64,000 bases of DNA, taken from the NCBI GenBank assembly GCA_964409875.1, contig CAYPEN010000003.1, positions 128,557-192,556 on the forward strand. The letters run 5' to 3'. The position numbers and the translations under genes are program-made. Within the stretch, counting starts at the first letter, position 1. The number at the start of each line of letters is the position of its first letter. Origin of the DNA: an uncultured Gammaproteobacteria bacterium (GTDB lineage: Bacteria > Patescibacteriota > Microgenomatia > Levybacterales > GWA1-39-11). Below, in pieces: positions 21,562 to 38,084 of the stretch. Under the pieces are notes generated by a model. That model saw only the letters and a list, made by a program, of their open reading frames with translations, searched no databases and was not told the origin of the DNA.

Positions 21562-21799
21562 CGGAAAGAATTATACAGCTTTTTCCATAAGAACTCGCTG
21601 TTTGCAAGAAAAACGTCTTTAAAGATCCAAAAAATTGTGCAAGTTATCGCATAGTTATTTTATAACTTCGTTATTTTAGCTTTTTGTCAGTTATCTTATT
21701 TTTCTTTGGTTAAATCGCCATTGTGGATTTAAATAAGCATAGCATACCAAAGTTAATGTAACCTCATAGAACTTCACCATATTTACTATCTGTGGATAG

Positions 21800-21828
21800 T
21801 TGACTTTATCATTCAATTAGCCTATAAT
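21800..21828 (+). promoter_or_regulatory. consensus sigma70 promoter TTGACT-N17-TATAAT, with palindrome CTATCTGTGGATAG abutting the -35
   Basis: -35 at 21800-21805, -10 at 21823-21828, palindrome at 21787-21800. Confidence 0.5.
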
Positions 21829-21850
21829 TCACAGCTTATATTAAAAAAAT

Positions 21851-22051
21851 ATGGGATATAACAAAACAAGTGCATTTTTAACCGTACAGGAGGTTGCAGA
21901 ACTTCTACGTTTGAGCGTTTTAACCATCTATAAATACATAAAAGAGGGCCAACTTGAGGCTTTAGAGTTCGGCGGACATTACCGTGTGTCACCCCTTTCT
22001 CTTGAACATTTTATTCAAAAACACATAGTGGGAGGTGGGGAAAATGCATAA
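21851..22051 (+). CDS. excisionase-family (HTH_17/MerR-like) DNA-binding protein
   Basis: LTVQEVAELLRLSVLTIYKYIKEGQL, the helix-turn-helix of Xis/AlpA-type binders. Its stop overlaps the next gene's start (ATGCATAA). Confidence 0.55.
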   Translation: MGYNKTSAFLTVQEVAELLRLSVLTIYKYIKEGQLEALEFGGHYRVSPLSLEHFIQKHIVGGGENA

Positions 22052-24278
22052 GAATGCGCTCAAAAAAGAAATTTCAATTATTGTTCCGACATACAACGAG
22101 GTTGACAACATTGAAGAATTGGTTGTGCGGATAAACAGCACTTTTCTTCCCCAAAATTATAATTATGAAATTATTTTCATAGACGATAAGTCAACTGATA
22201 GAACTCCGTTGAGGATAAATGCGTTATGTAAAGCGTATCCTGTAAGGTTCTTTTCTAAGCAAGGAAGAAAGGGGAAAGCGTATTCGCTTTTAGAGGGTTT
22301 TTCTAAGGCAAAATACCAAAATATTGCAATTATTGACGCAGATTTACAGTATCCCCCTGAAGCGATATTGCCAATGGTTAAAAAGCTTTCGTCATTTGAT
22401 GTAGTTGTTGCCAATAGGCAGCAATACAAAGAAGGGTTGACCAGGAAACTCATGAGTAAAACATTTAGAACCTTCTTTGGGAAATTTTTATTCGGGATAG
22501 ATGAAGACGTACAGTCGGGGCTGAAAGTATTTAAGAAAAAAGTAGTTGAGTCTATACATTTTACCCCCTCATCCCAGTGGACATTTGATTTAGAGTTCCT
22601 GCACCGCGCTCGAGAAGCCGGGTTTGTTACTTCTTCTTACGACATTGCATTTGCAAAAAGAAAAAAGGGAAGTTCAAAAGTTGAAGCAGTCAAGACATCT
22701 CTTGAGATAGGACTGAATGCCCTTAAATTCAAATTCAAACGAATTCATCCAGTTCACATTGCATCCAATGGACAAGGGATGGTGGGTGCGGGTATCGGGT
22801 ACAAAAAACGCCAGTTCGTAACACATACAACGCTTCCTCATAACAAAAGCGCAGTAAGAACATTTCTTTTAAGACAAAAGCTTTTTATAGGAATTCTTGT
22901 GGCAACGACAGTTATCGGGTTAATTTTCAACACAATGGTAACGCTGGGTGTTTTGATTGCCTTTTTGTCTGCTGTCTATTTCCTTGACGTTGTATTTAAT
23001 GCGCTGTTAATTCTTAAGAGTCTCAAGCACGAGCAAGATATTCATGTAGGTGATGAGGCAATCAAAAATCTTTCCGATGAAAAATTGCCTGTTTACACAA
23101 TTCTTTGCCCGCTCTATAAAGAGGGGCATATAATTGCGCAATTTGTCGATGCTATCTCGCGCCTTTCATGGCCGAAAGACAAGCTTGATGTTTTACTTTT
23201 ATTGGAAGAGGATGATAAAGAATCACAGGAAGTTGCAAAAACACTCAATCTGCCGTCTTTTGTCAGGACAATAGTTGTCCCGAATTCGCAGCCTAAAACA
23301 AAACCGAAAGCATGTAATTACGGACTCTCGTATGCGAAAGGCGATTATTTGGTCATCTACGACGCTGAGGATATCCCCGACCCTATGCAGCTTAAAAAAG
23401 CGTATCTAGGGTTTAAGAAAGCCGGAAGTTCGGTTAAGTGCCTTCAGGCAAAACTTAACTACCACAACCCCCATCAAAATCTTTTGACTCGCTTCTTCAC
23501 AGCCGAATACTCACTGTGGTTTGATGTGACGCTTACCGGCTATCAATCCATTAACACGACAATCCCACTCGGTGGAACGTCAAACCATTTCAGGACAAAG
23601 GATTTACTGTCTCTTCAGGGCTGGGACCCTTTCAATGTGACAGAAGACGCTGACCTTGGGGTGAGGCTTTTTAAAGAAGGGTATAGAACCGCAATAATCG
23701 ACTCGACAACTCTTGAGGAAGCCAATTCAAAGTGGGGAAATTGGGTAAGACAACGCTCGAGGTGGATAAAAGGGTACATGCAGACGTATTTGGTCCATAC
23801 AAGAAATCCGTACGCTTTTGTCAAAACCAACAGGCACCACGCATTCCTTTTCAACATGATTCTGGGAGGGAAGATAGCTTTCATTCTTATAAATCCTTTT
23901 CTTTGGCTTGCAACGTTTTCCTATTTTGCGCTCTATGCGTACGTCGGGCCTGCAATTGAGCGGCTGTACCCTGCGGTTGTTTTCTACATGGCCGGATTTT
24001 CGCTGGTTTTTGGGAACTTTTTGTACCTTTATTACTACATGATAGGGCTTATGAAGCGTGAGCAGTACGCTCTTATCAAATACATTTACCTTGTCCCTTT
24101 CTACTGGCTCATGATTTCATTTGCAGGGTTTTATGCATTGTATCAGCTCATTCTAAAACCCCACTATTGGGAGAAAACAGTCCATGGGCTCGTCAAAGAG
24201 AAAGAACCAAAGAAAGCTTTTGCATTACCGAAAATTCTAGTTACACCCGTCAGGTACGGGATGTCATTATTCGCCTAG
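22044..24278 (+). CDS. dual-domain family-2 glycosyltransferase (DPM1-like GT2 + processive GT2 with QxxRW), polytopic
   Basis: N-terminal IIVPTYNEVDNIEEL...FIDDKSTD...DADLQYP. A second domain carries DAEDIPDP and QRSRWIKG. Multiple TM helices lie between and after the two domains. RBS GGAGGTGGGG upstream of the ATG at 22044. Confidence 0.7.
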   Translation: MHKNALKKEISIIVPTYNEVDNIEELVVRINSTFLPQNYNYEIIFIDDKSTDRTPLRINALCKAYPVRFFSKQGRKGKAYSLLEGFSKAKYQNIAIIDADLQYPPEAILPMVKKLSSFDVVVANRQQYKEGLTRKLMSKTFRTFFGKFLFGIDEDVQSGLKVFKKKVVESIHFTPSSQWTFDLEFLHRAREAGFVTSSYDIAFAKRKKGSSKVEAVKTSLEIGLNALKFKFKRIHPVHIASNGQGMVGAGIGYKKRQFVTHTTLPHNKSAVRTFLLRQKLFIGILVATTVIGLIFNTMVTLGVLIAFLSAVYFLDVVFNALLILKSLKHEQDIHVGDEAIKNLSDEKLPVYTILCPLYKEGHIIAQFVDAISRLSWPKDKLDVLLLLEEDDKESQEVAKTLNLPSFVRTIVVPNSQPKTKPKACNYGLSYAKGDYLVIYDAEDIPDPMQLKKAYLGFKKAGSSVKCLQAKLNYHNPHQNLLTRFFTAEYSLWFDVTLTGYQSINTTIPLGGTSNHFRTKDLLSLQGWDPFNVTEDADLGVRLFKEGYRTAIIDSTTLEEANSKWGNWVRQRSRWIKGYMQTYLVHTRNPYAFVKTNRHHAFLFNMILGGKIAFILINPFLWLATFSYFALYAYVGPAIERLYPAVVFYMAGFSLVFGNFLYLYYYMIGLMKREQYALIKYIYLVPFYWLMISFAGFYALYQLILKPHYWEKTVHGLVKEKEPKKAFALPKILVTPVRYGMSLFA

Positions 24279-24292
24279 TTTAGGCAAAAAAT

Positions 24293-26890
24293 ATGAAGTT
24301 ATTGGATACCTCAAGAACACTCCGTTCTGTTAAGAACGGGGATGAATTGAGGAGAAAAAACCTCTTCCTTTCGAGGCATGTCCTAGGCTTTAGCCTAGGA
24401 AAGAGGTTATTTAAAAAATTTAAAGGTTCAGATAGTGCTGTCAAAAGACGGGCAGGGTTTGTCTTATTTGCAACGGCATTATCAAATGTCTTCAACCTTC
24501 TGTATAACGCATTCTTAGGCAGAAGCGTAAGTCTAGAAGACTTTGCGCTCATCAGCCTTATCGGTGGAATCCTTTCAATAACCGATATTCCGGTAGGCGC
24601 TTTGGGTAAAGCTGTTGTCTATAAAAGTGCGTATCATTTCGGCAAATACAACAAGCCGGCAACCGCATTCTGGCAGTATCTTCGGAAAAGGGCAATTGTA
24701 GCTTCAATTATTGTTTCGCTTCTTTGGGTTTTGGCAAGCGTTGGGATTACGCATTTTTTTCATATCGGGAGCATTTGGCCGGTTCTACTTATTACCCCAA
24801 TTTGGGCAACCACTTTGCTTTCATCTGTTGACGGTGGTTACTTAAATGGAAATCTAAAATTTGTGTTTCTTGCCTGCATTGCGCTTGTAGAATCTGTCAT
24901 TAAGCTCACTATTGCATTTCTTTTAGTTAAAGCCGGCTATGATGAATTTGCCTATCTATCTATAGTTTTGTCATCAGCTGTATCCTTCATCTTAATTGTT
25001 GCTGCAGCTGCCAGAATTAAAAAGCCTTCAATAATCCGTATTCAGAAAAATGCATTAGCTTTTCCCTTTAAATTTTATTTTTCAAGCGCAATAACAAAAA
25101 TTTCAAATGTTGTTTACCTTTCGAGTGATGTAATTTTGGCAAAACACTTTCTTGCACCTAGCCAAGCAGGGGAATATGCATTATTATCACTCTCGGGCAA
25201 AATGGTGTTTTTTGCAGGATCGCTTTTTGCCCAATTTATCCTTCCAATTGTAAGCCACAAAGAAGGTTCTGGAAAAAATTCACACAAGGTTTTCTACCAA
25301 TTGCTGCTTGCTTCTTTTGCTTCAAGTTTTCTTGCTTTTCTTATGGTTGGGGCTCTAGGGCACTTTACCATGCCATTTATTTTCGGGAAAAAGACGGCAG
25401 CAATTATTGGATTACTTCCGCTTTACTCACTTGCGATGGTGGCATTTACGGTTGCCACGAATATAGTGTCATTTGACCAAATAAAAGGGAAACATGTTTT
25501 GCCTGTCGTAAGTTTTCTTTTGGCAATAGGAGAAATTGTGGGAATTCTTATGTTCCACGATTCCTTAAAAAGTATCTCGAGTGTTATGGTTGTCATGGGC
25601 CTTTTAAGTTTTGGTGTTATTGGGCTCTTGCACATATTGGAGCCATTCTATACGACAATATTTACCAACCTTCGTGATTTCTTTGATGTCTTTTTGCCAT
25701 ACGATACACAAAAAGCAACAAATGGGCTTCGGATTTTAGTTCTTAATTGGCGGGACACGAAGCATAAATGGGCAGGGGGGGCAGAAGTTTACGTCCAGGA
25801 ACTTGCCAAAAGATGGGTAAATGAAGGCAATTCAGTTACCATATTTTGCGGAAATGATAGAAAAAACAGCCGGAATGAGACTATTGATGGTGTAAACATA
25901 GTAAGGCGCGGAGGATTTTATACCGTATATCTGTGGGCAGCATTGTATTATGCGCTTCGGTTTAGACGGGACTTTGATGTGATTGTTGATTCTGAGAATG
26001 GCATTCCATTCATGAGCCCACTTTTTTCAACCAAGCCGGTTGTCCTTCTTATTCATCACGTGCATCAGGAAGTTTTTGTGACAAATATGAAATTCCCGTT
26101 GTCTTATATAGGCAAATTTATAGAAGGAAAATTGATGCCATTCGTATACCGCAACAAAACAGTCATAACGGTTAGTGAGTCTTCCAAAAAGGAAATCATA
26201 AAAGCGGGGATTGCAAAAGAAGAGAATATCCAAATCGTTAATCCCGGAATTGAGATAGCTACAGGAAGAATTAGAAAGTCGTCAGTTCCGCAACTAATTT
26301 ATTTAGGACGGCTAAAGGCCTACAAGAACGTTGACGTTGCGATACGTGCGTTCTCACTGGTTTTGTCAAAAGTGAAAAAAGCAAAGTTTTTGATTGTGGG
26401 AGAAGGAGAAGCGATAAGAGACTTACAGGATATCGTAATCAAAATGGAATTAACCGACAAAGTCAGCTTTTTAGGGAAAGTTACGGAACAAGAAAAAATA
26501 AAACATCTATCAGAAAGCTGGGTTGCGGTACAACCGTCTGACGTTGAAGGGTGGGGGATTACTGTTCTTGAGGCAAATGCATGCAAGACTCCGGTTGTTG
26601 CATCAAAAACAAATGGACTGAAAGACTCAATAATTGACGGAAAAACAGGACTTCTTATTCCTGTCAAAGACACGAAAGGCTTTGCAAATAGCATTACAAA
26701 GCTTATGAGAAATGAAAAATTGAGGGCCTCATATTCAAAAAATGCATATACCTGGGCTAAGAATTTCAGTTGGGACGAAACATCAAGAATGTTTTTCAAC
26801 GTATTGTCGTACGAAGTAACCAACAAACAAAGAATATTCTCAATTGAGCGTCTCGGTTATCTCATGAGCCGCGTCACATCACTTTTTTAA
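24293..26890 (+). CDS. fusion of a polytopic Wzx/MOP-flippase-like membrane domain with a GT4 (GT-B) glycosyltransferase
   Basis: The first ~440 aa have 10-12 predicted TM helices. The C-terminus has GT4 hallmarks (LVLNWRDTKHKWAGGAEVY; E-x7-E region GWGITVLEANACKTPVVAS). Confidence 0.6.
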   Translation: MKLLDTSRTLRSVKNGDELRRKNLFLSRHVLGFSLGKRLFKKFKGSDSAVKRRAGFVLFATALSNVFNLLYNAFLGRSVSLEDFALISLIGGILSITDIPVGALGKAVVYKSAYHFGKYNKPATAFWQYLRKRAIVASIIVSLLWVLASVGITHFFHIGSIWPVLLITPIWATTLLSSVDGGYLNGNLKFVFLACIALVESVIKLTIAFLLVKAGYDEFAYLSIVLSSAVSFILIVAAAARIKKPSIIRIQKNALAFPFKFYFSSAITKISNVVYLSSDVILAKHFLAPSQAGEYALLSLSGKMVFFAGSLFAQFILPIVSHKEGSGKNSHKVFYQLLLASFASSFLAFLMVGALGHFTMPFIFGKKTAAIIGLLPLYSLAMVAFTVATNIVSFDQIKGKHVLPVVSFLLAIGEIVGILMFHDSLKSISSVMVVMGLLSFGVIGLLHILEPFYTTIFTNLRDFFDVFLPYDTQKATNGLRILVLNWRDTKHKWAGGAEVYVQELAKRWVNEGNSVTIFCGNDRKNSRNETIDGVNIVRRGGFYTVYLWAALYYALRFRRDFDVIVDSENGIPFMSPLFSTKPVVLLIHHVHQEVFVTNMKFPLSYIGKFIEGKLMPFVYRNKTVITVSESSKKEIIKAGIAKEENIQIVNPGIEIATGRIRKSSVPQLIYLGRLKAYKNVDVAIRAFSLVLSKVKKAKFLIVGEGEAIRDLQDIVIKMELTDKVSFLGKVTEQEKIKHLSESWVAVQPSDVEGWGITVLEANACKTPVVASKTNGLKDSIIDGKTGLLIPVKDTKGFANSITKLMRNEKLRASYSKNAYTWAKNFSWDETSRMFFNVLSYEVTNKQRIFSIERLGYLMSRVTSLF

Positions 26891-26894
26891 ATTT

Positions 26895-27902
26895 ATGAAT
26901 ACTTTTCCTTTAATAAAAATTAATAATTTAAATCTATGGCGTTTGCTTTTTTTGGAGTTAAGAAACATGTTTGCCATAAATAGTAATAAAAGTAAGCCTC
27001 TTTTACCGGAGGAGATTCTTGATTACAGATTAATAGAGGTAAAGAAAAATCGTTTGGATACCGATACTAATAGTTTGGGGGTTTATGAAAATCGCATTGG
27101 TCATAAGGCATTTGGGAAAATAATAGCGTTCAATTATCACAACACTGAATATTTCCGATTAAAAAATGAAATAAACTTTTACAATGTATATGCTTCACAC
27201 GCAAAAAGTAAGAATTTTAATAAAAAAAATTTAAATGTTCCCAAGTTAATATACTTTAAAGAGAGTAAAAACTCCCTTTTTGTATTATTGGAATATATTA
27301 GCGGTACATCGGCAAAGGATCTTGTAAATTTTGATAATGTTGCCGAATACATAAAAAATATTGACCTTCTTGTAAGTTTTGGCAAAAAATTCACTAAAAA
27401 GGAAAAGTCATTGTTTTCAAGTAGGAATATGCGTAGTTACCTAATGCTTTATCCGGGTTTATTTTTATCATCCTATTCTAAATACCCAAAAGCACGGATA
27501 GATCTACTTAGAGGGTTGGTGTTGCTGATTAGGAATTTTAACTTCATATTGAAACCTTCGAATTTAGTGCTTTCCCATAGAGATTTACATTTAGGAAATA
27601 TTATTTTTTGCAAAAAAAATACCTATCTTATCGACTTTGAACTAGTTGGTTATTCATTGCCTCTTTATGATTACCTTGTAGCATTGAAACAGGAATGGTC
27701 TAACGTAAAATTTAGAAAAAAACTGATAAAAAGCTTAGAACAACAAAACAATAAAAATGTTAATTTCGAAGATAATATTCGTACGCTAGGTATTTTTATT
27801 GCAACACATGGGTTAACAGATGCTAATAGTAGTGCAAACGAAAAAAGTAATATTCATGAATTTCTTAAATTTTTTCTTAATTATAAAGTCCATAAGGATT
27901 AG
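26895..27902 (+). CDS. aminoglycoside/choline-kinase-like phosphotransferase (protein-kinase fold)
   Basis: HRDLHLGN catalytic loop and a downstream IDFE (DFG-like) motif. Very AT-rich. Confidence 0.55.
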   Translation: MNTFPLIKINNLNLWRLLFLELRNMFAINSNKSKPLLPEEILDYRLIEVKKNRLDTDTNSLGVYENRIGHKAFGKIIAFNYHNTEYFRLKNEINFYNVYASHAKSKNFNKKNLNVPKLIYFKESKNSLFVLLEYISGTSAKDLVNFDNVAEYIKNIDLLVSFGKKFTKKEKSLFSSRNMRSYLMLYPGLFLSSYSKYPKARIDLLRGLVLLIRNFNFILKPSNLVLSHRDLHLGNIIFCKKNTYLIDFELVGYSLPLYDYLVALKQEWSNVKFRKKLIKSLEQQNNKNVNFEDNIRTLGIFIATHGLTDANSSANEKSNIHEFLKFFLNYKVHKD

Positions 27903-27906
27903 CAAT

Positions 27907-28704
27907 ATGAAAACTAAAACTTTCTTTTTAATAAGAACGGCTATTTTTAATTTTCTATATTATCTAACGAAAAGCGTTGATAGAAACTACAAATCTATAT
28001 TGTGTTTTCATAGTATTTCTAATAGCAATGACAGATATTCAATTTCTAAAGATATTTTTGAAAAAGAAATTATAAAAATAGCTAAAAACTCAAAATTTAT
28101 AAGTTTGGAACAAGCGTTAAGCCAAGAAAAATTGAGTAGCTCATCAGTAGCTATTACATTTGATGATGGGTATAGAGATATTTTAACAATATTGCCAATT
28201 CTTAAAAAGCACAATATTAAAGCGACAGCATTTGTTGTGTCTAATCCACAAAAAGTCTCAAGAGACGAACTAAAAAATGAAAATGCACTCCTATCTTTAG
28301 ACGAAATAAAACAGCTTTTGGAACACAAAATTGAAATAGGTTGTCACAGTGCAACACATAACGATTTAACTATATTAACTAAACGTGAGTTAGAAAAGGA
28401 AATTCTACAATCAAAAAAAGTTCTTGAAAAAAAACTTGGCGTAGAAGTGAAATACTTTGCCTACCCGAGAGGTAAATACAATAATAATGTGATACAAACG
28501 GTAAAAAGAGCAGGTTATAAGGCCGCTTTCTCCATAGATTCAGGGAATATATCTCCATCTAGCAATAAATGGATTTTACCGAGAACCATAATAGATAAAA
28601 CGCACAAACTTTCAGAATTTCCTTCCGTATATGCTCCCAGCACGATGTTTATTAGGAGATTAACAAATAACTTTGGTTTGTGGGAAAAATTCTTAGCAAT
28701 ATGA
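27907..28704 (+). CDS. polysaccharide deacetylase (CE4/NodB homology)
   Basis: ITFDDGYRD and CHSATH motifs. Confidence 0.65.
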   Translation: MKTKTFFLIRTAIFNFLYYLTKSVDRNYKSILCFHSISNSNDRYSISKDIFEKEIIKIAKNSKFISLEQALSQEKLSSSSVAITFDDGYRDILTILPILKKHNIKATAFVVSNPQKVSRDELKNENALLSLDEIKQLLEHKIEIGCHSATHNDLTILTKRELEKEILQSKKVLEKKLGVEVKYFAYPRGKYNNNVIQTVKRAGYKAAFSIDSGNISPSSNKWILPRTIIDKTHKLSEFPSVYAPSTMFIRRLTNNFGLWEKFLAI

Positions 28705-29615
28705 AAAACATTAGAAAAACAGTAACTGTAGGTATACCTGCTCATAACGAGCAAAACAATATTGCTCAATTACTAGAAGGTGTTTTGTCACAAAAAGGAA
28801 ATAGCTTTCTTTTGACAAAAGTAGTTGTTCTGTGCGATGGTTGTACGGATAAAACAGTAAGTATTGTATCAAAATATAAGAAAAAAAATAAAAAAATTGA
28901 ATTAAGAGATGATGGGTTGAGAGTCGGAAAAACAAGCAGATTGAATGAATTATTTACTAGTACCAATACAGATATTTGTATAACATTTGATGCAGACATT
29001 AAGCTAAATGATGTCAATGTGATAGAGGAATTGGTAAAGAAATTTAGAGATAAGAATATTGGATTAGTGGGAGGTTCTAATTTACCCTTGCCACCTAAAT
29101 CATTTTTTGAAAAAGTCGTCGTTGCATGGCTAATTTTATGGTATGAGGTGAGAAAAAACTACAATAATGGCAACACAATTCACAATCACTTAGGTTGCAT
29201 TACAGCTATGAGTAGGTCGTTATATAAAAAAACAATAATACCTTTAACAATATCTGCAGATGATGATTATCTTTACTTTAATGCACTTACTCAAAACTAT
29301 AAATTCGCTCATGCCGCCCATGCTAAGGTCTACTTTAGAAGTGCATCTACATTGAAAGACTTTTTCCTTCAACATTCAAGATTTTTAACTTTGAAGAATA
29401 ATATTCACTCACACTATGGGAACTGGGTTAATAATTATTATTACATCCCGATTGAAATTAAACTTAAGATTCTTATTAAGGAGTTCTTGAAAAACCCCTT
29501 CTACTTATCTCTTTCTGTTATATTGCAGCTTCTATTGCTCATCCATATTAAATTTACGAAATTTAATTACTCGAACGGGATGTGGAAGATTGCAATATCA
29601 TCAAAACAAATATGA
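28701..29615 (+). CDS. family-2 glycosyltransferase (paralog A)
   Basis: VTVGIPAHNEQNNI, DGCTDKT and FDADIKL. ATGA overlap with the upstream gene. Confidence 0.7.
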   Translation: MKNIRKTVTVGIPAHNEQNNIAQLLEGVLSQKGNSFLLTKVVVLCDGCTDKTVSIVSKYKKKNKKIELRDDGLRVGKTSRLNELFTSTNTDICITFDADIKLNDVNVIEELVKKFRDKNIGLVGGSNLPLPPKSFFEKVVVAWLILWYEVRKNYNNGNTIHNHLGCITAMSRSLYKKTIIPLTISADDDYLYFNALTQNYKFAHAAHAKVYFRSASTLKDFFLQHSRFLTLKNNIHSHYGNWVNNYYYIPIEIKLKILIKEFLKNPFYLSLSVILQLLLLIHIKFTKFNYSNGMWKIAISSKQI

Positions 29616-31114
29616 GTAACAAATTAAATAAAATTAAAAAGTACCGTGTTAGTAGTAATTTTATCGGTTACCTAATCCAAAACAACACAGCTTTAACTAT
29701 TTCGTTACTTGTTTTTTTTGTTTTAGTCGTTAGTTTGCTTGCCTCACCCTTAAAAAGCTTTTGGTCAGATGAAGTTTATAGTATAAATTTTTCAAGAACC
29801 CTAATACATACAGCAAAGTACAAAGATACAAATATGATGCTTTTTCATTTAATCCTTCATTATTGGATGCGGCTAGGAGAGAATGAGCTTGTATTAAGAA
29901 TATTGTCTACTGTTTTTGCATGTGCAACTATACCTTTCATCTATTTAATCGGTAAAAAACTTTTTAGCAAGGAAACTGGTTTGATTTCAGCAATCTTATT
30001 ATCAATAAATGTTTTTTTTATTGCTTATGCTCAAGAAGTAAGAAGTTATAGTCTGTTATTTTTGCTTTCAGCAATTTCAACTTATTACTTTGTACAAATA
30101 ATAAGTAAGCCCACCAAAAAACTTAATTACTTGTTTTATATTATTGCATCAGGATTATCTTTATATGCGCATTATTTTGCAATATTTCTAATCATCACTC
30201 ATTTCCTATATATTATTATTTTTAAAATTAGAAGCATAAAAATAAAATATTTATTTACAACTGGGATTTCTCTATTTCTTATTTGCATTCCTATTGTATT
30301 GATGTCGTCTTTAAATTCATCGCAAATAAATTGGCTTCCAAAACCCGGGCTAAAAAACGTTATTGGATTGCCATTTGTGCTTTCTGGTGATTTTCCTCCA
30401 ATTTTTATTAGTTACGGATTAATTGTATTTTATTTGATTTTCAAAACCATAGGAGGAATAAAAAAATCATCAATTAATAATGAGAAGATAATTAAGTATT
30501 TGTTGATTATATTTTTACTAGCAATACCACCTTTAATCACATTTTCTATTTCATTTTTCATAAAGCCAATAGTAACCTCTAAATACTTAATATTTTGTCT
30601 TTTACCTCTACTAATTCTAATCGGAAGTGGTATTGCCCAAATAAAATACAAAAAAATTAAATTTTTTGTTATGGTGATGCTAATTCTATTGGCCTTCATA
30701 CGTTTAGTAGCTTGGTTTAAGGATAGTAATTCAATCTACTGGGGATTATCTAACAAGAAGGATGATTGGAAGCAAATTGTTAAATTCACAAAGATGAATG
30801 CCGAAAACAGAGATGGAGTCACTTTTCTAACTTATTATTATGAAGAACCATTTCAATTTTATAACAAGAATACATCCAACCCTCTTAAGATATCAGAAAA
30901 AACAAACTATGCTTCTGATAAAAGCTTGCTATATATACCCAACACAAACTCATTGGTTGTAGCAGATTTTAGCTCTAGTAAAAAAATAGTATGGTTAATT
31001 GCTGATAATAATAGTCTGCCGATTTTGAGATATGTTGAAGGATTTGACTCTTATGCTCTAAATAGAACCTATAGCTTTGAAAGAGTTCAAGTTTTTAAAT
31101 TCGTAAAAAAATGA
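29612..31114 (+). CDS. GT-C fold membrane glycosyltransferase (ArnT/PMT-like)
   Basis: Eleven or more TM helices, with WSDEVYS (a DE-motif) in the first extracytoplasmic loop. Confidence 0.55.
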   Translation: MSNKLNKIKKYRVSSNFIGYLIQNNTALTISLLVFFVLVVSLLASPLKSFWSDEVYSINFSRTLIHTAKYKDTNMMLFHLILHYWMRLGENELVLRILSTVFACATIPFIYLIGKKLFSKETGLISAILLSINVFFIAYAQEVRSYSLLFLLSAISTYYFVQIISKPTKKLNYLFYIIASGLSLYAHYFAIFLIITHFLYIIIFKIRSIKIKYLFTTGISLFLICIPIVLMSSLNSSQINWLPKPGLKNVIGLPFVLSGDFPPIFISYGLIVFYLIFKTIGGIKKSSINNEKIIKYLLIIFLLAIPPLITFSISFFIKPIVTSKYLIFCLLPLLILIGSGIAQIKYKKIKFFVMVMLILLAFIRLVAWFKDSNSIYWGLSNKKDDWKQIVKFTKMNAENRDGVTFLTYYYEEPFQFYNKNTSNPLKISEKTNYASDKSLLYIPNTNSLVVADFSSSKKIVWLIADNNSLPILRYVEGFDSYALNRTYSFERVQVFKFVKK

Positions 31115-32030
31115 TTAAGAAATACACTGTCACAATAGCTTTAAGCGCTTACAACGAAGAGAATAATATTAAAAGTCTTTTAGAATCTGTTTTAGCGCAA
31201 AAAGAAACAAACTTTACAATAAAATCGATCTGGATTTTCTCGGATGGATCAAGGGATAATACTGCAAAGAAGGTAAAACAAATCAATGATAACAGAATAA
31301 AATTATTCAATTATAAAAGCCGTATGGGAAATCTGCTCGTTTAAATCAATTATATAGGATGTTATCTACTGATTTTCTTGTACAGACTGATGCAGATGTA
31401 GTATTTTCGCATAAATATGTCGTTAGAGATATTATTCAACCTTTAATTAATGAACGCGATGTAATGATGTGCGGTGGCAATCCTCACCCTATGCCTGCAC
31501 TAACATTTATAGAGAAATCAGTAAATTTTACTGTAAATGCATATATCCCATTACGCAAACTTTACAATGGTGGAGATAACATTTTTTCTGTTGATGGACG
31601 CCTACTTGCATATAAAAAAGAACTCGTAAAAAGAATTTTTATTCCAGAGGCGGAGGTTACAGCGAATGATGCATTTACGTACTTTTGCTGCCTTACTTTT
31701 GGCTATAAATATAAGTTTGTAGAAAGTGCAAAAGTATTTTTTAGGTCCCCACAGACTTTGAAAGATCATATAAAACAAAATACACGTTTTATGGCTATGC
31801 CAATAAAAATGAGCAAGTATTTCGACCCAACCCTCGTATTAAATGCAAAAAAAGTATCCAAAAAATTGTACTTAAAATTATTCATTAAAGCTTTTTTAAA
31901 AAATCCTATACATTGTTTTGCGATATTTTTAATAAATCTTTACATCAGACTAATATTCAAAAGTAGAGAAAAGCATCTGAAAGCTAAATGGCAAATAGCA
32001 AACACAACAAAGCTATTAAATTCCGTATGA
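31111..32030 (+). pseudogene. family-2 glycosyltransferase (paralog B) disrupted by a -1 frameshift near 31335
   Basis: ORFs 31111-31344 and 31359-32030 are the N and C halves of one GT2. A +1 shift after 'RMG' restores KSARLNQLYRMLSTDFLVQTDADV, which is collinear with the paralogs (RVGKTSRLNELF...FDADI). The break lies in an A-run (gggaaatct). Confidence 0.6.
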
Positions 32031-32932
32031 AAAATAACATAACTTTATCAATCGGCATACCAGTTCTTAATGAAGAGAAAAATATTTCAAATATTATTGA
32101 AGATATTTTTCAACAGGATTTAAGAACAGTTTCACTAGCAGAAATAATAGTTATTTCGGATGCAAGTTCCGATAGCACAGAACAAATAGTTGGGCGTTTT
32201 AAAAAGCCCGAAATTAAACTATATCGCAATGAAGAAAGAATCGGTAAGGCATTAACGCAAAATATAATAGCAAGGAAGGCAGCAGGAGATTTGTTGGTAC
32301 TGTTAGACGCTGATATTAGGATCAGAGACAAGAAATTTCTAGAAAAGTTAATAAAGCCTATAATGAATGACAAGCTAGTAGGTATAACCTCACCCAAAAT
32401 TTTACCGATAAAATCGGATACTTTTATTGGAGATGTTTTAGATTACAGTGTGAGAATAAAAAATAAAATTTACGAAAGTTATGATCATGGAAATAACATT
32501 TATTCATGTCATGGACGTGCTCGTGCGTTTTCCAAGAGATTATATAAAAAAATTAAATGGCCTAAAATATCTTCAGAGGACTCGTTTAGTTATTTGTATG
32601 CAATAAGCAATAAATTTAAATTCTGTTTGGTACCTGCAACTGAAATTTATTATAAATCTCCTCAAAACTATTTAGACCATTTGAGCCAAAGTCGACGATT
32701 TTTTGAAAGTGAGAAGGAGTTAGAAATGTATTTTCCAAAAAAAAAGCTACAAAAAGCCTTCAAGTTACCTTTTGTATTAACATTAAGGACAATTTGCCTC
32801 TACTTCCTATTTAATCCAATTTACTTTCTAATATATTTAATAGTATTAATTCGTGTGAAATTAAATAATAATGAATATGGGGTACTTTGGGTAATGTCAC
32901 AATCCTCGAAGGAGAGTATTGAACTAAAATAA
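32027..32932 (+). CDS. family-2 glycosyltransferase (paralog C)
   Basis: LSIGIPVLNEEKNI, SDASSDST and LDADIRI. ATGA overlap. Confidence 0.7.
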   Translation: MKNNITLSIGIPVLNEEKNISNIIEDIFQQDLRTVSLAEIIVISDASSDSTEQIVGRFKKPEIKLYRNEERIGKALTQNIIARKAAGDLLVLLDADIRIRDKKFLEKLIKPIMNDKLVGITSPKILPIKSDTFIGDVLDYSVRIKNKIYESYDHGNNIYSCHGRARAFSKRLYKKIKWPKISSEDSFSYLYAISNKFKFCLVPATEIYYKSPQNYLDHLSQSRRFFESEKELEMYFPKKKLQKAFKLPFVLTLRTICLYFLFNPIYFLIYLIVLIRVKLNNNEYGVLWVMSQSSKESIELK

Positions 32933-32933
32933 T

Positions 32934-34448
32934 ATGAAAAAGAATTTATTAAAAATTATTTTTATTAGCCTTATTGGTATTTTATTACTAACATTACTTT
33001 CTGTCGGTATAAAGGGACAGGCAAATAAACCGTACTATTATCAAGACTCCAAAAATAAGGAAGTAGGGGGTCCATTTGAAGCATCAAATAGCACGTCACG
33101 GTACGCATTGGTTGAATCGTTGGTAAATAATCATACCTTCCTTTTTGATGCAAAACAAACCTCCTTTTCTGCACCTGATGTTGTTATTTATAAAGGCAAG
33201 GCGTTTTCCATATTTACACCAGGTGTTTCATTTATTGCTGCTCCCTTTTATTTTTTAGGAAAGTTCATAGGAATTCCACAAATAGCCGCCTATTTTTCTA
33301 CAGTTGTTTTCGCCTTAATTAATGCTGCTCTAGTGTATTCAATTGCGCGAAGGCTTCAGGCGTCACGAATAGCATCTGTCTTTTCATCGGGTATTTTCCT
33401 TTTTGCAACCAACGCGCTTCCATATGCTTTTAGCCTTACACAACATCACTTTAGTCTAACCGTCATTTTACTTTCGTTGTTAAATGCTACCGAAAAAAGA
33501 ACTTGGATGAATGACATATTGTTCGGTATATACACAGGCGCTGCGTTACTTTTTGATATCCCAAATATTTTTCTCATTTTCCCAATTGGACTGTATGTAC
33601 TTTTCAGACACTTCAATGTGGAGAACATGTCTTCTAAATTAAAGTTGTCGGTAAAGCCTGTAATGCTTGCGATAATAGCAGGGATAATCCCTTTTGTTTT
33701 ACTTTTCTCAGTCTATAACCATGAGCTAACAGGTTCCTACACAAAAATTGGGCAAACAATAGGAAGAGCTGACTTTACGAATACAAAGGTAGTGCACGAG
33801 TCTCCAAAAAGCGTTTATGATAAAAAACTCCCGTTCAACACGAGAAATGAGATACAGGGGTTATACACGCTTCTTATTAGCAATGAAAGAAGTTGGTTGT
33901 GGTATTCACCTATTCTTCTGGTTGGTCTCGTGGGGGCTTATATCGGCTACAAGAAATCTGAAAAACGGACACTTACCATATTGCTTATTTCCCTTATAGT
34001 TACGAATATTATCATTTATTCAATGTTCGGAGACCCGTGGGGAGGGTGGGCATTCGGGCCGAGATATTTAATTCCGGGAGATGCCGCTCTTTCTATTCTT
34101 ATAGCGCTTGCAATTGATACATATCGCCGGCATCTGTTATTTAATAGCATCGTCCTTGTTCTTGTGTTTTATAGCATTTACATCAATGTATTGGGGATGA
34201 TGACAACAACAAGTATTCCTCCAAAACAAGAAGCCGAAGCACTCACAAAACCCATTCCATATACGTATCAGTACAATCAGAACCTGTCGGGGACAAATAA
34301 TTCAAAGTCTTACTTATATACTACGTATTTGCGAGACATTGTTGAACTTAATTCTTTCATAATTATTTACTCCTCTTTGGTGTTTTTGATACTTGCCTTA
34401 CCATATATGCGTTTTTGGTGGAAAGAAAAGGAGAAATTATGGATTTAA
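32934..34448 (+). CDS. polytopic membrane protein, probable GT-C glycosyltransferase
   Basis: Twelve or more TM helices. The first loop, TSRYALVES, resembles the Asp/Glu-x-x-Arg-Tyr loop of ArnT-like enzymes. Confidence 0.45.
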   Translation: MKKNLLKIIFISLIGILLLTLLSVGIKGQANKPYYYQDSKNKEVGGPFEASNSTSRYALVESLVNNHTFLFDAKQTSFSAPDVVIYKGKAFSIFTPGVSFIAAPFYFLGKFIGIPQIAAYFSTVVFALINAALVYSIARRLQASRIASVFSSGIFLFATNALPYAFSLTQHHFSLTVILLSLLNATEKRTWMNDILFGIYTGAALLFDIPNIFLIFPIGLYVLFRHFNVENMSSKLKLSVKPVMLAIIAGIIPFVLLFSVYNHELTGSYTKIGQTIGRADFTNTKVVHESPKSVYDKKLPFNTRNEIQGLYTLLISNERSWLWYSPILLVGLVGAYIGYKKSEKRTLTILLISLIVTNIIIYSMFGDPWGGWAFGPRYLIPGDAALSILIALAIDTYRRHLLFNSIVLVLVFYSIYINVLGMMTTTSIPPKQEAEALTKPIPYTYQYNQNLSGTNNSKSYLYTTYLRDIVELNSFIIIYSSLVFLILALPYMRFWWKEKEKLWI

Positions 34449-36049
34449 ATATAACGCTTCGTAAAAATTGGTTTTCTAGGCTTTCAAATTTTTTTTCCAA
34501 AAATGCGGTTTTGATTCTTATTATTATTCTTTCTGCAATTTCGGTTGCCAATTTTATCTATTATCTTAATAACCACCTGGGGCTTTCGTATAACGATGCA
34601 CGGTCCCACTTAGATATCGGAAGGAGAGTCGTTGAAGGGCTAAAGCCCGGGCTTGCGCAGCTTGGGTCCGTATGGCTTCCGTTGCCGCATTTGCTGATGG
34701 TCGCAACCATTTGGAATGACTTCATGTGGCATACTGGCCTTGCAGGAGCGATAGAGTCTATGGTTTCATTTGTTGCAACGGGGGTTTTGGTCTATCTATT
34801 TTTGAAAAATTTAGGAGTAGGGATGCTGGGCAGGCTTATTGGTGTTTTTGCATTTGTTGCTAATATTAACGTTTTGTATCTGCAGTCAACCGCCATGACA
34901 GAATTGCTGCTTCTTGCCACCATGACTGCCGGGGTATACGAGCTTTTTATGTGGCAGAAAGAGGGAAAACTCCTTCACCTTATATACTCGGCATTTTGGA
35001 TAATGCTTGCAACTCTCAATCGCTATGACGGGTGGTTTCTCTTTTTATGGGCTGCTGCAACCATAATTGTTCTTGCTTTCAGAAAAAAAGGCTTCAAGGT
35101 AGCTGAGGGGACATTTTTGTTTTTTATTACCTTAGGAGGCTTTGGTATTGCGTTGTGGTTCTTGTGGAATCTTCTTATTTTTAAAGACCCCCTGTATTTT
35201 GCATTCGGTCCGTATTCGGCCCATGCACAGCAACAACAACTCAAAGAAGCAGGGGTTTTGGCTACTAACCGCAACTTGCTGTTGTCGATTAAAGTGTACT
35301 TGTATGCGCTTGCCTATAACAGCTATACGGTGCCACTAATCTTAGGAACTCTCGGGGCTTTTGCGTTTTGGTTTGACACTAGAGTAAAAGGTAATATAAA
35401 GATTGCTACGTCATCACTTATTGCGCCATTAGTATTTAATATTCTTGCTTTGTTCTTAGGCTTTTCGGTGCTTTTTGTACAAGGGATTTCGGGTAACACA
35501 TGGTTTAATGTGCGGTATGGGATTATGATGGCACCCTCAATTGCTATTTTTATAGGGTTCTTGGTTGACCGGTTCAAAAATTTCAGGTGGTTATTTATTG
35601 TCCTTCTATTATTTATCACGTTCTTTGCATTTGCCAATAACGACGCGGTGACAATTGATGATGCCAGGGTTGGGTCTTCCCAAAAAAATGTTTCTGAAGT
35701 ATCGGGCTGGCTCAACAAGAACGCAAAAGACAAAGAAGGGTTTGTGCTTATTTCCGCTGCTTCGCATGACGCTATCATCTTTTCATCAGGACTTCCCATG
35801 AGTAAATTCATACATGAAGGAACCGGTACGTATTGGTTATCCGCAACATCTGCACCTGACAGGTGGGCCCGGTGGATAATTATGCGTACGAATGACTTAA
35901 ATGACCAGACATTCAAAGCTGTACATACAACTGCCGGGTACAAAAAATACAATTTGGTGGGTCACTATCCTTTTGCCGATATTTATGAATTAAAACCCGA
36001 GTATCTCAAAACCCTCAACACAAAGCCGACATTGGGCAAACAAAAATAG
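34439..36049 (+). CDS. polytopic membrane protein, probable GT-C glycosyltransferase
   Basis: RBS AAAGGAG lies 6 nt upstream. Has an NDARSHLDIGRR loop after TM1 and many TM helices. Confidence 0.45.
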   Translation: MDLNITLRKNWFSRLSNFFSKNAVLILIIILSAISVANFIYYLNNHLGLSYNDARSHLDIGRRVVEGLKPGLAQLGSVWLPLPHLLMVATIWNDFMWHTGLAGAIESMVSFVATGVLVYLFLKNLGVGMLGRLIGVFAFVANINVLYLQSTAMTELLLLATMTAGVYELFMWQKEGKLLHLIYSAFWIMLATLNRYDGWFLFLWAAATIIVLAFRKKGFKVAEGTFLFFITLGGFGIALWFLWNLLIFKDPLYFAFGPYSAHAQQQQLKEAGVLATNRNLLLSIKVYLYALAYNSYTVPLILGTLGAFAFWFDTRVKGNIKIATSSLIAPLVFNILALFLGFSVLFVQGISGNTWFNVRYGIMMAPSIAIFIGFLVDRFKNFRWLFIVLLLFITFFAFANNDAVTIDDARVGSSQKNVSEVSGWLNKNAKDKEGFVLISAASHDAIIFSSGLPMSKFIHEGTGTYWLSATSAPDRWARWIIMRTNDLNDQTFKAVHTTAGYKKYNLVGHYPFADIYELKPEYLKTLNTKPTLGKQK

Positions 36050-36051
36050 CT

Positions 36052-37338
36052 ATGAAGACCGTAAAAATTCAAATTGGGCATAAAACAACGCTTTTTAGTG
36101 GGCTTTTTCTTTTGCTTTTGGCACTTTTTTCTATATTTTATTTCTTCTATTTTGTGCCTTTGGAAGCCCAAGGAACACGCGCAATGTTCTGGTCATTCCA
36201 GTCAATTGACACTATGAAATATTCGCGGGATTTAGCACGCGAAAAGCTCAATGACCCTTCTTTTGACACGGTTATTGCAAAGCAAATGAAAGATATTGCC
36301 TCAACGGGCGCAACGCACGTTGCAATAGCAACGCCGTACGACGAGGAGTTCTATCCCATGCTTCTTCGGTGGGTAAGAGCTGCCCGCCGCGAGCATTTAA
36401 ATGTGTGGTTCCGTGGCAATTTTTCAGGATGGGAAGGGTGGTTTTCGTACCCTAAAATTACGCGTGCAGAACACCTGCAAAAAACCAAGGAATTCCTTAA
36501 AAATCATCTTGAGCTTTTCGCTGACGGAGACGTTTTTACGGCTTGTCCCGAATGTGAAAACGGCGGGCCGGGTGACCCAAGATTAACGGGTGATGTCACC
36601 GGACATAGGCAATTTTTGATTGACGAATACATGTTGACGAAGAACTTTTTTACTGAGAAAAACAAGAAAGTTGCCTCAAATTACGATTCTATGAATAGAG
36701 ATGTAGCGTCCCTTGTTATGGACAAAGACACCACCCGTGCTCTTGGTGGAGTAGTGACTATTGACCATTACGTTGCAAACGGAGAAAAACTTGCAGCAGA
36801 TATAGAATCTCTGTCTGAGAAAACCGGAGGCAAAATTGTATTGGGTGAGTATGGTGCCCCAATTCCTGATATTCATGGACAGATGAACGAGCAGGAGCAA
36901 GCATTATGGATAAGAAACGTGGGGGAACTTTTGGTACGGACAAATAACCTCATTGGGGTAAATTATTGGGTTAATACAGGAGGTTCAACCCAACTGTGGA
37001 ATGAAGACGGCACGAAAAGGTTGGCTGTTGATGCGATATCGTCGTATTACACCCCTCAACAATTGAAACTAAGCGTTAAGAATGAATTGGGAAGGCCAAT
37101 TGAGGCGGCGACGGTAAAGGGTGAGGAAAGATTTGTTGTTACCTCCAAAAACGGAGTAGGTACCTTGCCGTATTTTGACACAACTGAAAAGATAACGGTG
37201 AGTGCCCCAAACTATACTGCTAAAACTCTTTCTATTTCCGGTGTAAATAATAATACAATTATGCTAGAACGTATTAGTGAAAGTCCTCTTTTCAAGTTCT
37301 TGAAGTTGTTGCGCTTAAAATTGCCGGCGACTAAATAG
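36052..37338 (+). CDS. membrane-anchored putative glycoside hydrolase (TIM-barrel-like) with a C-terminal Ig/CarbopepD_reg-like domain
   Basis: N-terminal TM helix. The assignment is weak and rests on overall composition plus a C-terminal beta-sandwich-like region (KGEERFVVTSKNGVGTLPYFD). Confidence 0.35.
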   Translation: MKTVKIQIGHKTTLFSGLFLLLLALFSIFYFFYFVPLEAQGTRAMFWSFQSIDTMKYSRDLAREKLNDPSFDTVIAKQMKDIASTGATHVAIATPYDEEFYPMLLRWVRAARREHLNVWFRGNFSGWEGWFSYPKITRAEHLQKTKEFLKNHLELFADGDVFTACPECENGGPGDPRLTGDVTGHRQFLIDEYMLTKNFFTEKNKKVASNYDSMNRDVASLVMDKDTTRALGGVVTIDHYVANGEKLAADIESLSEKTGGKIVLGEYGAPIPDIHGQMNEQEQALWIRNVGELLVRTNNLIGVNYWVNTGGSTQLWNEDGTKRLAVDAISSYYTPQQLKLSVKNELGRPIEAATVKGEERFVVTSKNGVGTLPYFDTTEKITVSAPNYTAKTLSISGVNNNTIMLERISESPLFKFLKLLRLKLPATK

Positions 37339-37407
37339 CCTCATTTGTGCGTGACAAAATCGTGACTAAATTATTAGCATTTCCTATTTAGTCAGAGATT
37401 TTCATTT

Positions 37408-37436: not shown

Positions 37437-37454
37437 TACTATATTATATTTTTT

Positions 37455-38075: not shown

Positions 38076-38084
38076 TACATTGTT

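Follow-up and report, generated by a model that had tools for sequence, protein, structure and literature searches.

The locus described here, on the plus strand from position 21851 to 37338 of a 64,000-nucleotide stretch of contig CAYPEN010000003.1 (hereafter 'the window'), is a genuine 15-kb operon for the assembly of a surface glycan, a role which a first-pass annotation of the same DNA had proposed and which the gene content supports. We suggest, with a probability of roughly 60%, that the operon builds a glycan linked to a polyprenyl monophosphate, which would be assembled in the cytoplasm, flipped across the membrane and then transferred outside the cell by glycosyltransferases of the GT-C type, and that this pathway is conserved across Patescibacteria. 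The operon combines (i) a GT2 glycosyltransferase domain of the DPMS type, (ii) a flippase-like domain and (iii) three GT-Cs, and extracytoplasmic transfer from a lipid-linked donor is thus implied. Scans of the locus proteins against Pfam and NCBIfam detected no initiating transferase of the WecA/MraY or WbaP type, which is consistent with a monophosphate linkage.

The enzyme classes and the logic of such a pathway are already known. What appears to be new is the locus of Patescibacteria itself, the four-domain fusion of which the window carries a split form, the families of the two terminal proteins (P544 and P428) and the exchange of a central cassette, for none of which a description was found in the literature that could be searched. 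The initial remark that the fused architecture does not correspond to a described operon therefore stands as far as that literature goes, but the architecture is not peculiar to this genome.

Organization of the operon

The operon consists of 12 genes in 13 open reading frames (ORFs; Table 1), two genes fewer than the fourteen first counted. The genes are co-directional and tightly packed, most junctions being either start/stop overlaps or gaps of at most 14 nt, with ATGA overlaps at four of them (CE4/GT2a, GT2a/GT-Ca, GT-Ca/GT2b and GT2b/GT2c). In the centre, genes for GT2s and GT-Cs are interleaved in the order GT2a, GT-Ca, GT2b, GT2c, GT-Cb and P544. The domain searches recovered the GT2, GT4 and GT-C folds which had been predicted, although two details have to be modified: the three paralogous, ATGA-coupled GT2 genes are present as such but one of them is a pseudogene, and the three GT-Cs, two of which match PMT_2 while P544 exhibits the GT-C fold, do not form a group of their own.

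The gene at the head of the operon encodes what is probably a small, co-transcribed DNA-binding regulator. As had been noted, it belongs to the HTH_17 family and its stop overlaps the next gene; the overlap with the ATG of the GT2N~GT2C gene measures 8 nt (junction sequence GGAGGTGGGGAAAATGCATAA). A homologue occupies the same position in locus L005 (55% identity), and a small HTH gene is found there in 13 of 77 loci overall, which disfavours the 'excisionase-type' label initially attached to it; this label derives from the Pfam family only, and no integrase domain was found among the neighbouring ORFs examined. The promoter-like site in front of the gene, first described as perfect, matches 11 of 12 consensus positions and is the second-best site in 18.5 kb, occupying the sole intergenic gap that heads the operon. 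Promoter-like sites are not in excess in the region (56, compared with 61 +/- 8 in shuffled sequences); the two best ones fall in the only two sizeable intergenic gaps of the plus strand.

Directly 5' of this site, a divergent pair on the minus strand (21000-21561) comprises an HTH_3 (XRE) gene and a gene for a small hydrophobic protein of ~122 aa. The pair is also found in the closest relative (L004) and could represent a local regulator.

Table 1. Features of the operon and of the genes directly downstream.
Feature	Position	Strand	Evidence and remarks
Promoter-like site TTGACT-N17-TATAAT	21800-21828	+	Putative promoter; 11/12 consensus positions; 22 nt 5' of first gene
HTH_17 protein, 66 aa	21851-22051	+	MerR-superfamily winged helix-turn-helix; Pfam PF12728, E = 1.9e-13
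GT2N~GT2C, 744 aa	22044-24278	+	Pfam, two GT2 domains
MOP~GT4, 865 aa	24293-26890	+	N-domain (about 1-478) polytopic, Wzx/PST-related; C-terminal cytoplasmic GT4 (GT-B)
Variable cassette, seven genes	26900-34490	+	No nucleotide similarity to closest relative
Kinase of APH/choline-kinase fold, 311 aa	26967-27902	+	Pfam APH, 1.3e-10; ORF could open at 26895
CE4 de-N-acetylase, 265 aa	27907-28704	+	Pfam Polysacc_deac_1, 9.5e-31
GT2a, cassette-type GT2, 304 aa	28701-29615	+	Pfam PF00535, 9.2e-19; ATGA overlap with CE4
GT-Ca, PMT_2-type GT-C, 500 aa	29612-31114	+	Pfam PMT_2, 1.3e-14 (55 bits, cut-off 26)
GT2b, pseudogene	31111-32030	+	Split into ORFs of 77 aa and 223 aa; Pfam matches on both halves
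GT2c, cassette-type GT2, about 301 aa	32027-32932	+	Pfam PF00535, 7.9e-22; ATGA-coupled ATG, ORF opens at 31988
GT-Cb, 504 aa	32934-34448	+	PMT_2, 27.8 bits (cut-off 26.1)
P544, GT-C family without Pfam model, 536 aa	34439-36049	+	ATG preceded by Shine-Dalgarno sequence; ORF opens at 34415
P428	36052-37338	+	N-terminal transmembrane anchor, clan GH-A (beta/alpha)8 glycosidase-like domain, C-terminal beta-sandwich
Promoter-like site TTGACA-N17-TATAAT	37409-37437	+	Perfect (12/12), best in region; 18 nt 5' of LAxTG gene
LAxTG secreted protein, 206 aa	37455-38075	+	Translation and family alignment
Sortase	38085-38645	+	Pfam PF04203, 2.7e-22; 72% identity to neighbour in L004

A split form of a widespread four-domain fusion

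Pfam confirms that the second gene encodes two GT2 domains in one protein, one of them DPM1-like and the other with a QxxRW motif, as had been read from its translation (with a GTG start the protein would measure 747 aa). The first domain, GT2N (about residues 1-335), includes a hydrophobic stretch of ~2 transmembrane (TM) segments at 275-327. Its best matches in the PDB are Pyrococcus DPMS (5mlz; 1.8e-23) and then GtrB (5ekp) and ArnC, and it carries, as read from the translation, the sequence DADLQ and thus DxDxQ, the motif of polyprenyl-phosphate GT2s (PMC10821137). Among the GT2 domains of the locus this motif is restricted to GT2N: the small GT2s exhibit DADIK (GT2a), DADVV and DADIR, so that the Q is absent in all three. 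Hence, of the 'lipid-carrier-type GT2s' that had been assumed in the plural, only GT2N resembles DPMS, GtrB and ArnC, and by homology only can this domain be classified as a membrane-linked enzyme of the polyprenyl-phosphate sugar synthase type. The second domain, GT2C (about residues 336-744), has E. coli BcsA as its best PDB match (3.8e-13), and its motifs DAED, TED (within VTEDADLG) and QRSRW are retained in 67-69 of 69 homologues. GT2C would thus be a membrane-embedded GT2 of the synthase type, which its motif signature predicts to be processive.

The third gene encodes a fusion of a flippase-like domain with a GT4, again in accord with the first reading. The GT4 matches Pfam at residues 495-821, and the assignment of the N-terminal domain to the MOP family comes from its homologues, of which 13 of 37 match PF01943 (Polysacc_synt, best 1.1e-9) and 4 match PF13440 (Polysacc_synt_3), that is, 17 of 37 together. 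Since these homologues match the two families although the copy in the window does not, we consider its N-terminal domain to be of a divergent MOP/Wzx type.

Nearly all named proteins among the 120 homologues listed for MOP~GT4 are from Patescibacteria, mostly from Microgenomates lineages, and about 40 of the 120 are 1,200-1,500 aa in length and also hold GT2 domains. Scanning one genome per species revealed relatives in at least 575 species; the informative titles among the carriers are those of Patescibacteria and span Microgenomates as well as Parcubacteria lineages. When ORFs were called in 83 loci and annotated with hidden Markov models built from the proteins of the window, a single GT2N~GT2C~MOP~GT4 polypeptide (~1,550 aa) was found in 52 of 77 loci, GT2C~MOP~GT4 in 8, and MOP~GT4 alone in 17, in which a GT2 protein is usually encoded just upstream. 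The window thus carries, split over two genes, a four-domain fusion that occurs widely among Patescibacteria.

Many records of metagenome-assembled genomes among the carriers (L007, L009-L012 and others) bear the name uncultured Gammaproteobacteria, Pseudomonadales or Bdellovibrionales. Such names appear to be mislabels used as placeholders, because in other respects the locus is typical of Patescibacteria and all named relatives of its proteins belong to that group.

Conserved gene order and the terminal proteins P544 and P428

The synteny expected among related genomes is indeed observed. Of 60 loci with at least 8 kb of downstream sequence, 56 encode GT-Cb, 57 encode P544 and 55 retain the order, and P428 follows wherever the sequence extends far enough; the typical order is variable cassette, GT-C, GT-C and GH-A. 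Other genomes moreover encode the fusions GT2C~P544, GT2N~GT2C~P544, P544~P428 and GT-Cb~P544, which indicates that GT2C, GT2N, P544, P428 and GT-Cb work together. The GT2C parts of the P544 fusions are true orthologues (48-54% identity) with intact TED and QRSRW motifs.

P544 and P428 belong to families that are still annotated as 'hypothetical'. Neither protein has a match in Pfam (E <= 10) or NCBIfam, and profile searches of PDB sequences with the two families yielded only noise. Comparison of folds revealed a GT-C fold in the model of P544, and the loop of its active site contains the invariant stretch YNDARSHLDIGRR. The P544 family comprises 822 clusters at 50% identity (E <= 1e-30). For P428, comparison of folds identified a clan GH-A enzyme like PslG; together with the TM anchor this agrees with the membrane-anchored, hydrolase-like protein recognized at the outset, and P428 is predicted to be extracytoplasmic.

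The degree of conservation differs along the system. Median identities to the proteins of the window are 67% for GT2C, 62% for P544 (the second most conserved part), 51% for P428, 50% for GT4, 43% for GT2N, 36% for MOP and 33% for GT-Cb. The position of GT-Cb, just before P544 in 56 of 60 loci, is thus fixed, while its sequence is variable and only 37% identical even to that of L004. From this gradient it follows that GT2C and P544 handle something invariant, whereas GT-Cb tracks the variable cassette. We propose to consider P544 as a conserved ligase or transferase, and GT-Cb as a glycan-specific polymerase or transferase.

Across loci (L006, L009, L018, L059, L062 and others), the identity of P544 proteins to the one in the window falls into two classes, of about 60-68% and of about 32-42%. 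In the GT2C~P544 fusion proteins that were aligned (among P0424, P0466, P0469 and P0482), the P544 part belongs to the lower class, with 32-34% identity.

An exchangeable cassette in the centre of the locus

Close relatives differ in the middle of the locus, which has been swapped in the manner of a serotype cassette. The closest relative, L004, has a MOP~GT4 protein that is 85% identical and the same chromosomal neighbours on both sides, and comparison by blastn aligned the window collinearly with L004 over 13795-26899 and 34491-39359, with 75-79% of nucleotides identical, while nothing aligns across 26900-34490. The breakpoints coincide with the stop of MOP~GT4 and a point just inside the start of P544. 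In L004 the cassette consists of GT2, methyltransferase, CE4, GT4 and GT-Cb; in the window it consists of kinase, CE4, GT2a, GT-Ca, GT2b (the pseudogene), GT2c and GT-Cb. Consistently, the proteins of the frame are 82-92% identical between the two, and GT-Cb (37%), CE4 (37%) and GT2c (41%) are far less so. The GC content is 28-31% for six cassette genes and 37% for GT-Cb, compared with 39-43% for the conserved frame genes. A chimeric assembly as the origin of this low-GC centre is excluded, because three independent assemblies are 100% identical to the window over the cassette junctions.

The composition of the cassette differs across about 60 loci. Cassette-type GT2s are found in 95% of the loci, with 1-6 per locus, and a GT4 in 83%. 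Among 75 otherwise unannotated cassette ORFs that were scanned, 17 encode methyltransferases, 9 NDP-sugar epimerases or dehydratases, 8 PIG-L proteins, 6 GNAT/FemAB-like proteins, and 5 each DegT proteins, pyruvyl transferases and hexapeptide acyltransferases, in addition to RmlC and nucleotidyl transferases. This is the usual make-up of a polysaccharide specificity region, and the centre of the locus may hence be regarded as a specificity cassette that can be exchanged, much as the variable regions of lactococcal pellicle, O-antigen or capsule loci.

Pfam confirms the kinase and the deacetylase of the cassette, which had been recognized in the translations, as an APH-type kinase and a CE4. 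The kinase, found in 38% of the related loci, presumably acts in the cytoplasm and phosphorylates a sugar of the intermediate. The best NCBIfam matches of CE4 are IcaB and PgaB, both under the respective cut-offs, and the match to ArnD is insignificant (E = 0.065). Fusion partners of CE4 in other genomes are APH (five loci), GT4 and GT2 (APH~CE4, CE4~GT4, GT2~CE4), with no intervening TM segment, and one APH~CE4~GT-Cb protein has its first TM segment only downstream of CE4. Being fused in this manner to domains which use ATP or NDP-sugars, CE4 is placed in the cytoplasm, and we infer that it acts on the cytoplasmic face of the membrane. Deacetylases of the PIG-L type (motif SPHxDDA) are present in 7 loci, every one of which lacks CE4, so that one or the other is found in about 36 of 62 loci (~58%), compared with 45% for CE4 alone. 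This pattern suggests that de-N-acetylation is a selected step, which likely acts on a lipid-linked N-acetylhexosamine (HexNAc).

GT2a is presumably an elongating transferase. GT-Ca, which matches the mannosyltransferase MT1671 of NCBIfam under the cut-off (4e-9), is an extra GT-C of this cassette and was seen in just 1 of 83 other loci. That GT2a and GT-Ca might form a self-contained pair of a GtrB-like enzyme and a GT-C was considered and rejected: GT2a is devoid of DxDxQ, and loci without an extra GT-C commonly have members of its family. GT-Cb matches the LA_3751/3752 family of NCBIfam, likewise under the cut-off (8.7e-19).

The lesion in GT2b is a deletion of 1 nt in the A-run at 31329-31331, and adding one A yields an ORF of 306 aa. 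The same deletion is present in the independent assemblies SRR11845633 and SRR11845634, which suggests a recently inactivated transferase and perhaps an altered glycan in this population. Phase variation is unlikely because the run is merely AAA/AAAA, and we thus treat GT2b as a recent pseudogene.

Proposed pathway and described systems

The gene content, folds, motifs, fusions, synteny and replacement of the cassette are observed; from them we infer the carrier, the sugars, the order of the steps, the roles of the GT-Cs and the acceptor as follows. GT2N would load a first sugar, probably HexNAc, onto polyprenyl-phosphate. On the cytoplasmic face, this intermediate would be tailored by CE4 (de-N-acetylation) and the kinase, and extended by GT2C, GT4 and the GT2s of the cassette, whereupon the MOP/Wzx-like domain would flip it across the membrane. 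Outside, GT-Cb may act like a polymerase on the strain-specific part and P544 like a ligase which transfers the glycan to a conserved acceptor, with GT-Ca possibly adding an extra branch or sugar in this strain. Finally, the anchored GH-A enzyme P428 might trim or remodel the product.

The nearest described analogue appears to be the polysaccharide pellicle (PSP) branch of rhamnose-rich cell wall polysaccharide (Rha-CWPS) synthesis in Lactococcus (WpsA/B, WpsC-F, WpsG, WpsH/I and WpsJ; PMC10821137). There, repeat units are built on undecaprenyl phosphate (C55-P) starting from GlcNAc-P-C55, elongated by strain-specific glycosyltransferases, translocated by a Wzx-type flippase and handled by GT-Cs (PMC10821137). 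The locus would share with this branch (i) initiation on undecaprenyl-monophosphate by a DPMS-like GT2, (ii) the Wzx-type flippase, (iii) GT-Cs for polymerization and final transfer, and (iv) strain-variable cytoplasmic glycosyltransferases encoded in a variable region between conserved genes, as is seen in the replacement of the cassette between the window and L004. It differs in that it encodes no WpsB/GacJ partner and has no separate gene for a small membrane protein in the operon, GT2N possessing a TM stretch of its own, and in that neither rhamnan (rml/rgp) genes nor an ABC transporter were found in the locus or among the ORFs of the window that were scanned. The sole permease of the FtsX/MacB type in the window (54490-55749) is unrelated in context, and genes of the RmlC type occur in a few other cassettes. 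The locus adds, in turn, a BcsA-like GT2 domain, the joining of up to four domains in ~1,550 aa, a GH-A partner and P544. The likeness is hence one of pathway logic, with what may be called partial membership, and is not meant as a comparison of orthologous sequences.

A related scheme is provided by multi-component transmembrane glycosylation, in which a GT2 (GtrB/CsbB/GacI), a flippase (GtrA or Wzx) and a GT-C (YfhO/GacL) cooperate (PMC8035078). The locus would share its three-part logic, with homology pointing to a GT2 that makes a C55-P-sugar and with polytopic proteins of GT-C fold, and GacK of these systems (PMC8035078) represents a precedent for a Wzx-type flippase. However, such systems decorate a finished polymer with single sugars, whereas the locus encodes many cytoplasmic glycosyltransferases, 2-3 GT-Cs, a hydrolase and a synthase-like GT2. 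The implied product is an oligo- or polysaccharide and not a decoration with monosaccharides.

In the Arn pathway of lipid A modification, the GT2 ArnC, the CE4 deformylase ArnD, the flippase ArnE/F and the GT-C ArnT act together. A polyprenyl-phosphate-sugar synthase, a CE4 acting on a lipid-linked sugar before flipping and transfer by a GT-C would be common to this pathway and the locus, and ArnC and ArnT are among the solved relatives. The flippase is of another class, however, lipid A is absent from a monoderm, the transferases are many more, and CE4 is not significantly related to ArnD. Likewise, assembly of mycobacterial phosphatidylinositol mannosides, lipomannan and lipoarabinomannan (PIM/LM/LAM) and of eukaryotic glycosylphosphatidylinositol (GPI) involves a GT4, a de-N-acetylase, a DPM1-type GT2 and several GT-Cs. 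GPI synthesis ends with a transpeptidase that attaches proteins, and the locus has a sortase as a conserved neighbour; in contrast to these pathways, no evidence for a phosphatidylinositol acceptor was obtained and a flippase is explicit in the locus.

With synthases of the BcsA, PgaC, NodC and HAS types GT2C has the D, DxD, TED and QxxRW signature and flanking TM helices in common, and the locus has a glycosidase partner as such systems do. Unlike in these systems, GT2C never stands alone but is linked or fused to a DPMS-like GT2, MOP, GT4 or a GT-C, no match to PilZ was found, and an extracytoplasmic deacetylase of the PgaB/IcaB type, as is present in Bcs/Pga/Ica systems, is lacking, with the fusions placing CE4 in the cytoplasm. 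When compared with Wzx/Wzy-dependent O-antigen and capsule loci, the Pfam and NCBIfam scans of the locus proteins gave no match to an initiating WecA or WbaP, and neither Wzy nor a chain-length regulator, WaaL or an LCP ligase was detected; GT-Cs hold these positions. Membership in the Wzx/Wzy, Bcs/Pga and PMT systems fails on their defining features.

Weighing the alternatives

Several observations weigh against a polyprenyl-monophosphate-linked pathway as outlined above. First, GT2C bears the full signature of a processive, self-exporting beta-glycan synthase (DxD, TED and QxxRW, with BcsA as best solved relative), which would have no place in a model of the lactococcal type and may indicate a second, synthase-made polymer. 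GT2C may either extend the lipid-linked primer, or make and export a separate conserved backbone, to which the variable chain would be attached by P544. Second, the MOP domain of the window itself has no match in Pfam even at E <= 10, and none in NCBIfam. Third, a de-N-acetylase is encoded in only about 58% of the loci and the kinase in 38%, so that these are not core steps. Fourth, the model of P544 reaches no more than a moderate pLDDT of 68, with low confidence for the conserved first external loop, TM topology was estimated by a Kyte-Doolittle hydropathy scan, which is crude, and the polymerase and ligase roles are read from conservation patterns alone. Finally, the analysis identified no cultivated organism that carries the locus.

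It is conceivable, though unlikely, that the locus encodes instead a machine for protein O-glycosylation, whose GT-Cs would place a polyprenyl-phosphate-linked sugar or oligosaccharide on Ser/Thr of the LAxTG protein or other surface proteins. Such a machine would resemble the actinobacterial PMT or the S. mutans Pgf system. GT2N matches the NCBIfam model PgfS (1e-23, far under the cut-off of that model), and an LAxTG protein with a Ser/Thr/Gly-rich linker and a sortase flank 9 of 11 informative loci; this reading would moreover be compatible with the pathway proposed above if a protein were the final acceptor. However, none of the three GT-Cs matches PMT (PF02366) or MIR, PMT_2 (the ArnT/PMT-like superfamily) being found only in GT-Ca and GT-Cb, and the O-mannosylation-like system envisaged in the first-pass annotation is thus not established. 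In addition, the large variable cassette of glycosyltransferases and sugar-nucleotide tailoring genes and its GH-A partner are what one typically finds in polysaccharide loci, and the LAxTG gene has a strong promoter-like site of its own.

Slightly less probable still is a pathway for a lipoglycan or glycolipid, related to mycobacterial PIM/LM/LAM or eukaryotic GPI synthesis. Here GT4 would glycosylate a membrane lipid, the deacetylase would expose an amine, and after flipping the GT-Cs would extend the product with the polyprenyl-phosphate-sugar made by GT2N. That the family scans of the locus proteins gave neither a phosphoglycosyl-transferase nor a wall ligase of the LCP type agrees with this proposal. 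Yet the matches of GT4 are generic, with enzymes of the MshA, TarM and BshA type scoring higher, GT2C is left unexplained, and the variable cytoplasmic GT2s and GT4s suit the assembly of repeat units better than elongation confined to the outside.

We consider a purely synthase-dependent exopolysaccharide of the Bcs/Pga/Ica kind to be quite improbable. GT2C would make and export a homopolymer, CE4 would deacetylate it, P428 would cleave it, and all other proteins would be accessory. The complete synthase signature of GT2C, the most conserved component of the system, speaks for such a polymer, as do the IcaB and PgaB matches of CE4 (under cut-offs) and the fact that P428, like PslG, is a GH-A enzyme. 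It would leave unexplained, however, the universal linkage of GT2C to the DPMS-like GT2, MOP and GT4, the two conserved GT-Cs and the variable glycosyltransferase cassette; the family scans yielded no PilZ or co-polymerase match, and CE4 is both cytoplasmic by the logic of its fusions, which rule out extracellular deacetylation as known for poly-N-acetylglucosamine (PNAG), and absent from about half of the loci.

The view that a horizontally acquired mobile island is headed by an excisionase can be rejected on the synteny with L004: its first gene does belong to HTH_17, a family including excisionases, and its centre is clearly lower in GC, but the whole frame including the HTH gene lies in the same chromosomal context in L004 and is found again in hundreds of species, the ORFs scanned revealed no integrase or recombinase domain, and exchange is confined to the internal cassette with breakpoints at gene borders.

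Implications for the envelope of Patescibacteria

The ultrasmall Patescibacteria, or the Candidate Phyla Radiation (CPR), account for much of the diversity of bacteria. Those in cultivation live attached to other microbes, and little is known of the chemistry of their envelope. The locus is among the most conserved multi-gene envelope systems traced here in Patescibacteria, and makes the nature of the CPR glycan coat, as well as its role in attachment to the host or escape from phages, accessible to testing. In other bacteria, strain-level variation of the surface governs recognition by phages and hosts, and a low-GC, exchangeable cassette between flanks of 75-79% identity suggests that such variation exists here. 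The four-domain GT2~GT2~MOP~GT4 protein, in turn, represents a natural fusion of initiation, elongation and flipping, and could serve as a compact model for the coupling of these steps.

Genes flanking the operon

Downstream of the operon, the best promoter-like site of the region precedes the genes of a secreted LAxTG protein and a sortase, which flank the locus in 9 of 11 loci with a visible flank. The LAxTG protein comprises a signal peptide, a conserved domain of ~110 aa with four Cys, a Ser/Gly/Asp-rich linker, the sorting signal LASTG, a TM segment and a basic tail, and the consensus in the alignment of its family is LGLAxTGN. LAxTG is the motif of class E sortases. The protein could be an associated surface protein or an acceptor of the glycan. 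Sortases are near-ubiquitous in Microgenomates (Méheust 2019). Given that the pair flanks most of these loci, that a de-N-acetylase is encoded in about 58% and that the same enzyme classes recur, down to a cysteine transpeptidase, we also considered a bacterial counterpart of GPI anchoring, in which the glycan of the locus rather than peptidoglycan would anchor the LAxTG protein, with the amine exposed by CE4 or PIG-L as the nucleophile for the sortase. This is highly improbable, as many loci lack a deacetylase and a separate promoter-like site precedes the sortase pair.

The gene at 19228-20964 on the minus strand, a few kb away from that of the Cys-containing LAxTG protein, encodes a fusion of a DsbD-type TM domain with thioredoxin (domain call of the Logan gene table for L001). 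CPR bacteria are reported to be enriched in thiol-disulfide oxidoreductases (Méheust 2019).

Elsewhere in the window, a polytopic DUF2079 membrane protein of 484 aa (44230-45684, minus strand; Pfam 1.9e-32) is encoded beside a P-type ATPase (45689-47542). DUF2079 proteins are suspected to be GT-C-like; should this hold, the window would have a fourth GT-C candidate. At 48166-50153 on the plus strand, the gene for a second CE4 deacetylase (48166-49017) runs into the beginning of that for an alanine racemase (49014-50153), and the two may form a separate pair related to peptidoglycan. Three ORFs of 317, 531 and 372 aa on the plus strand (432-2984 and 42883-44001) have no Pfam match at E <= 1e-4. 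On the minus strand at 4115-6489, finally, the gene for glucose-6-phosphate dehydrogenase adjoins a 6-phosphogluconate-dehydrogenase-like gene, representing oxidative steps of the pentose-phosphate pathway in a lineage of reduced metabolism.

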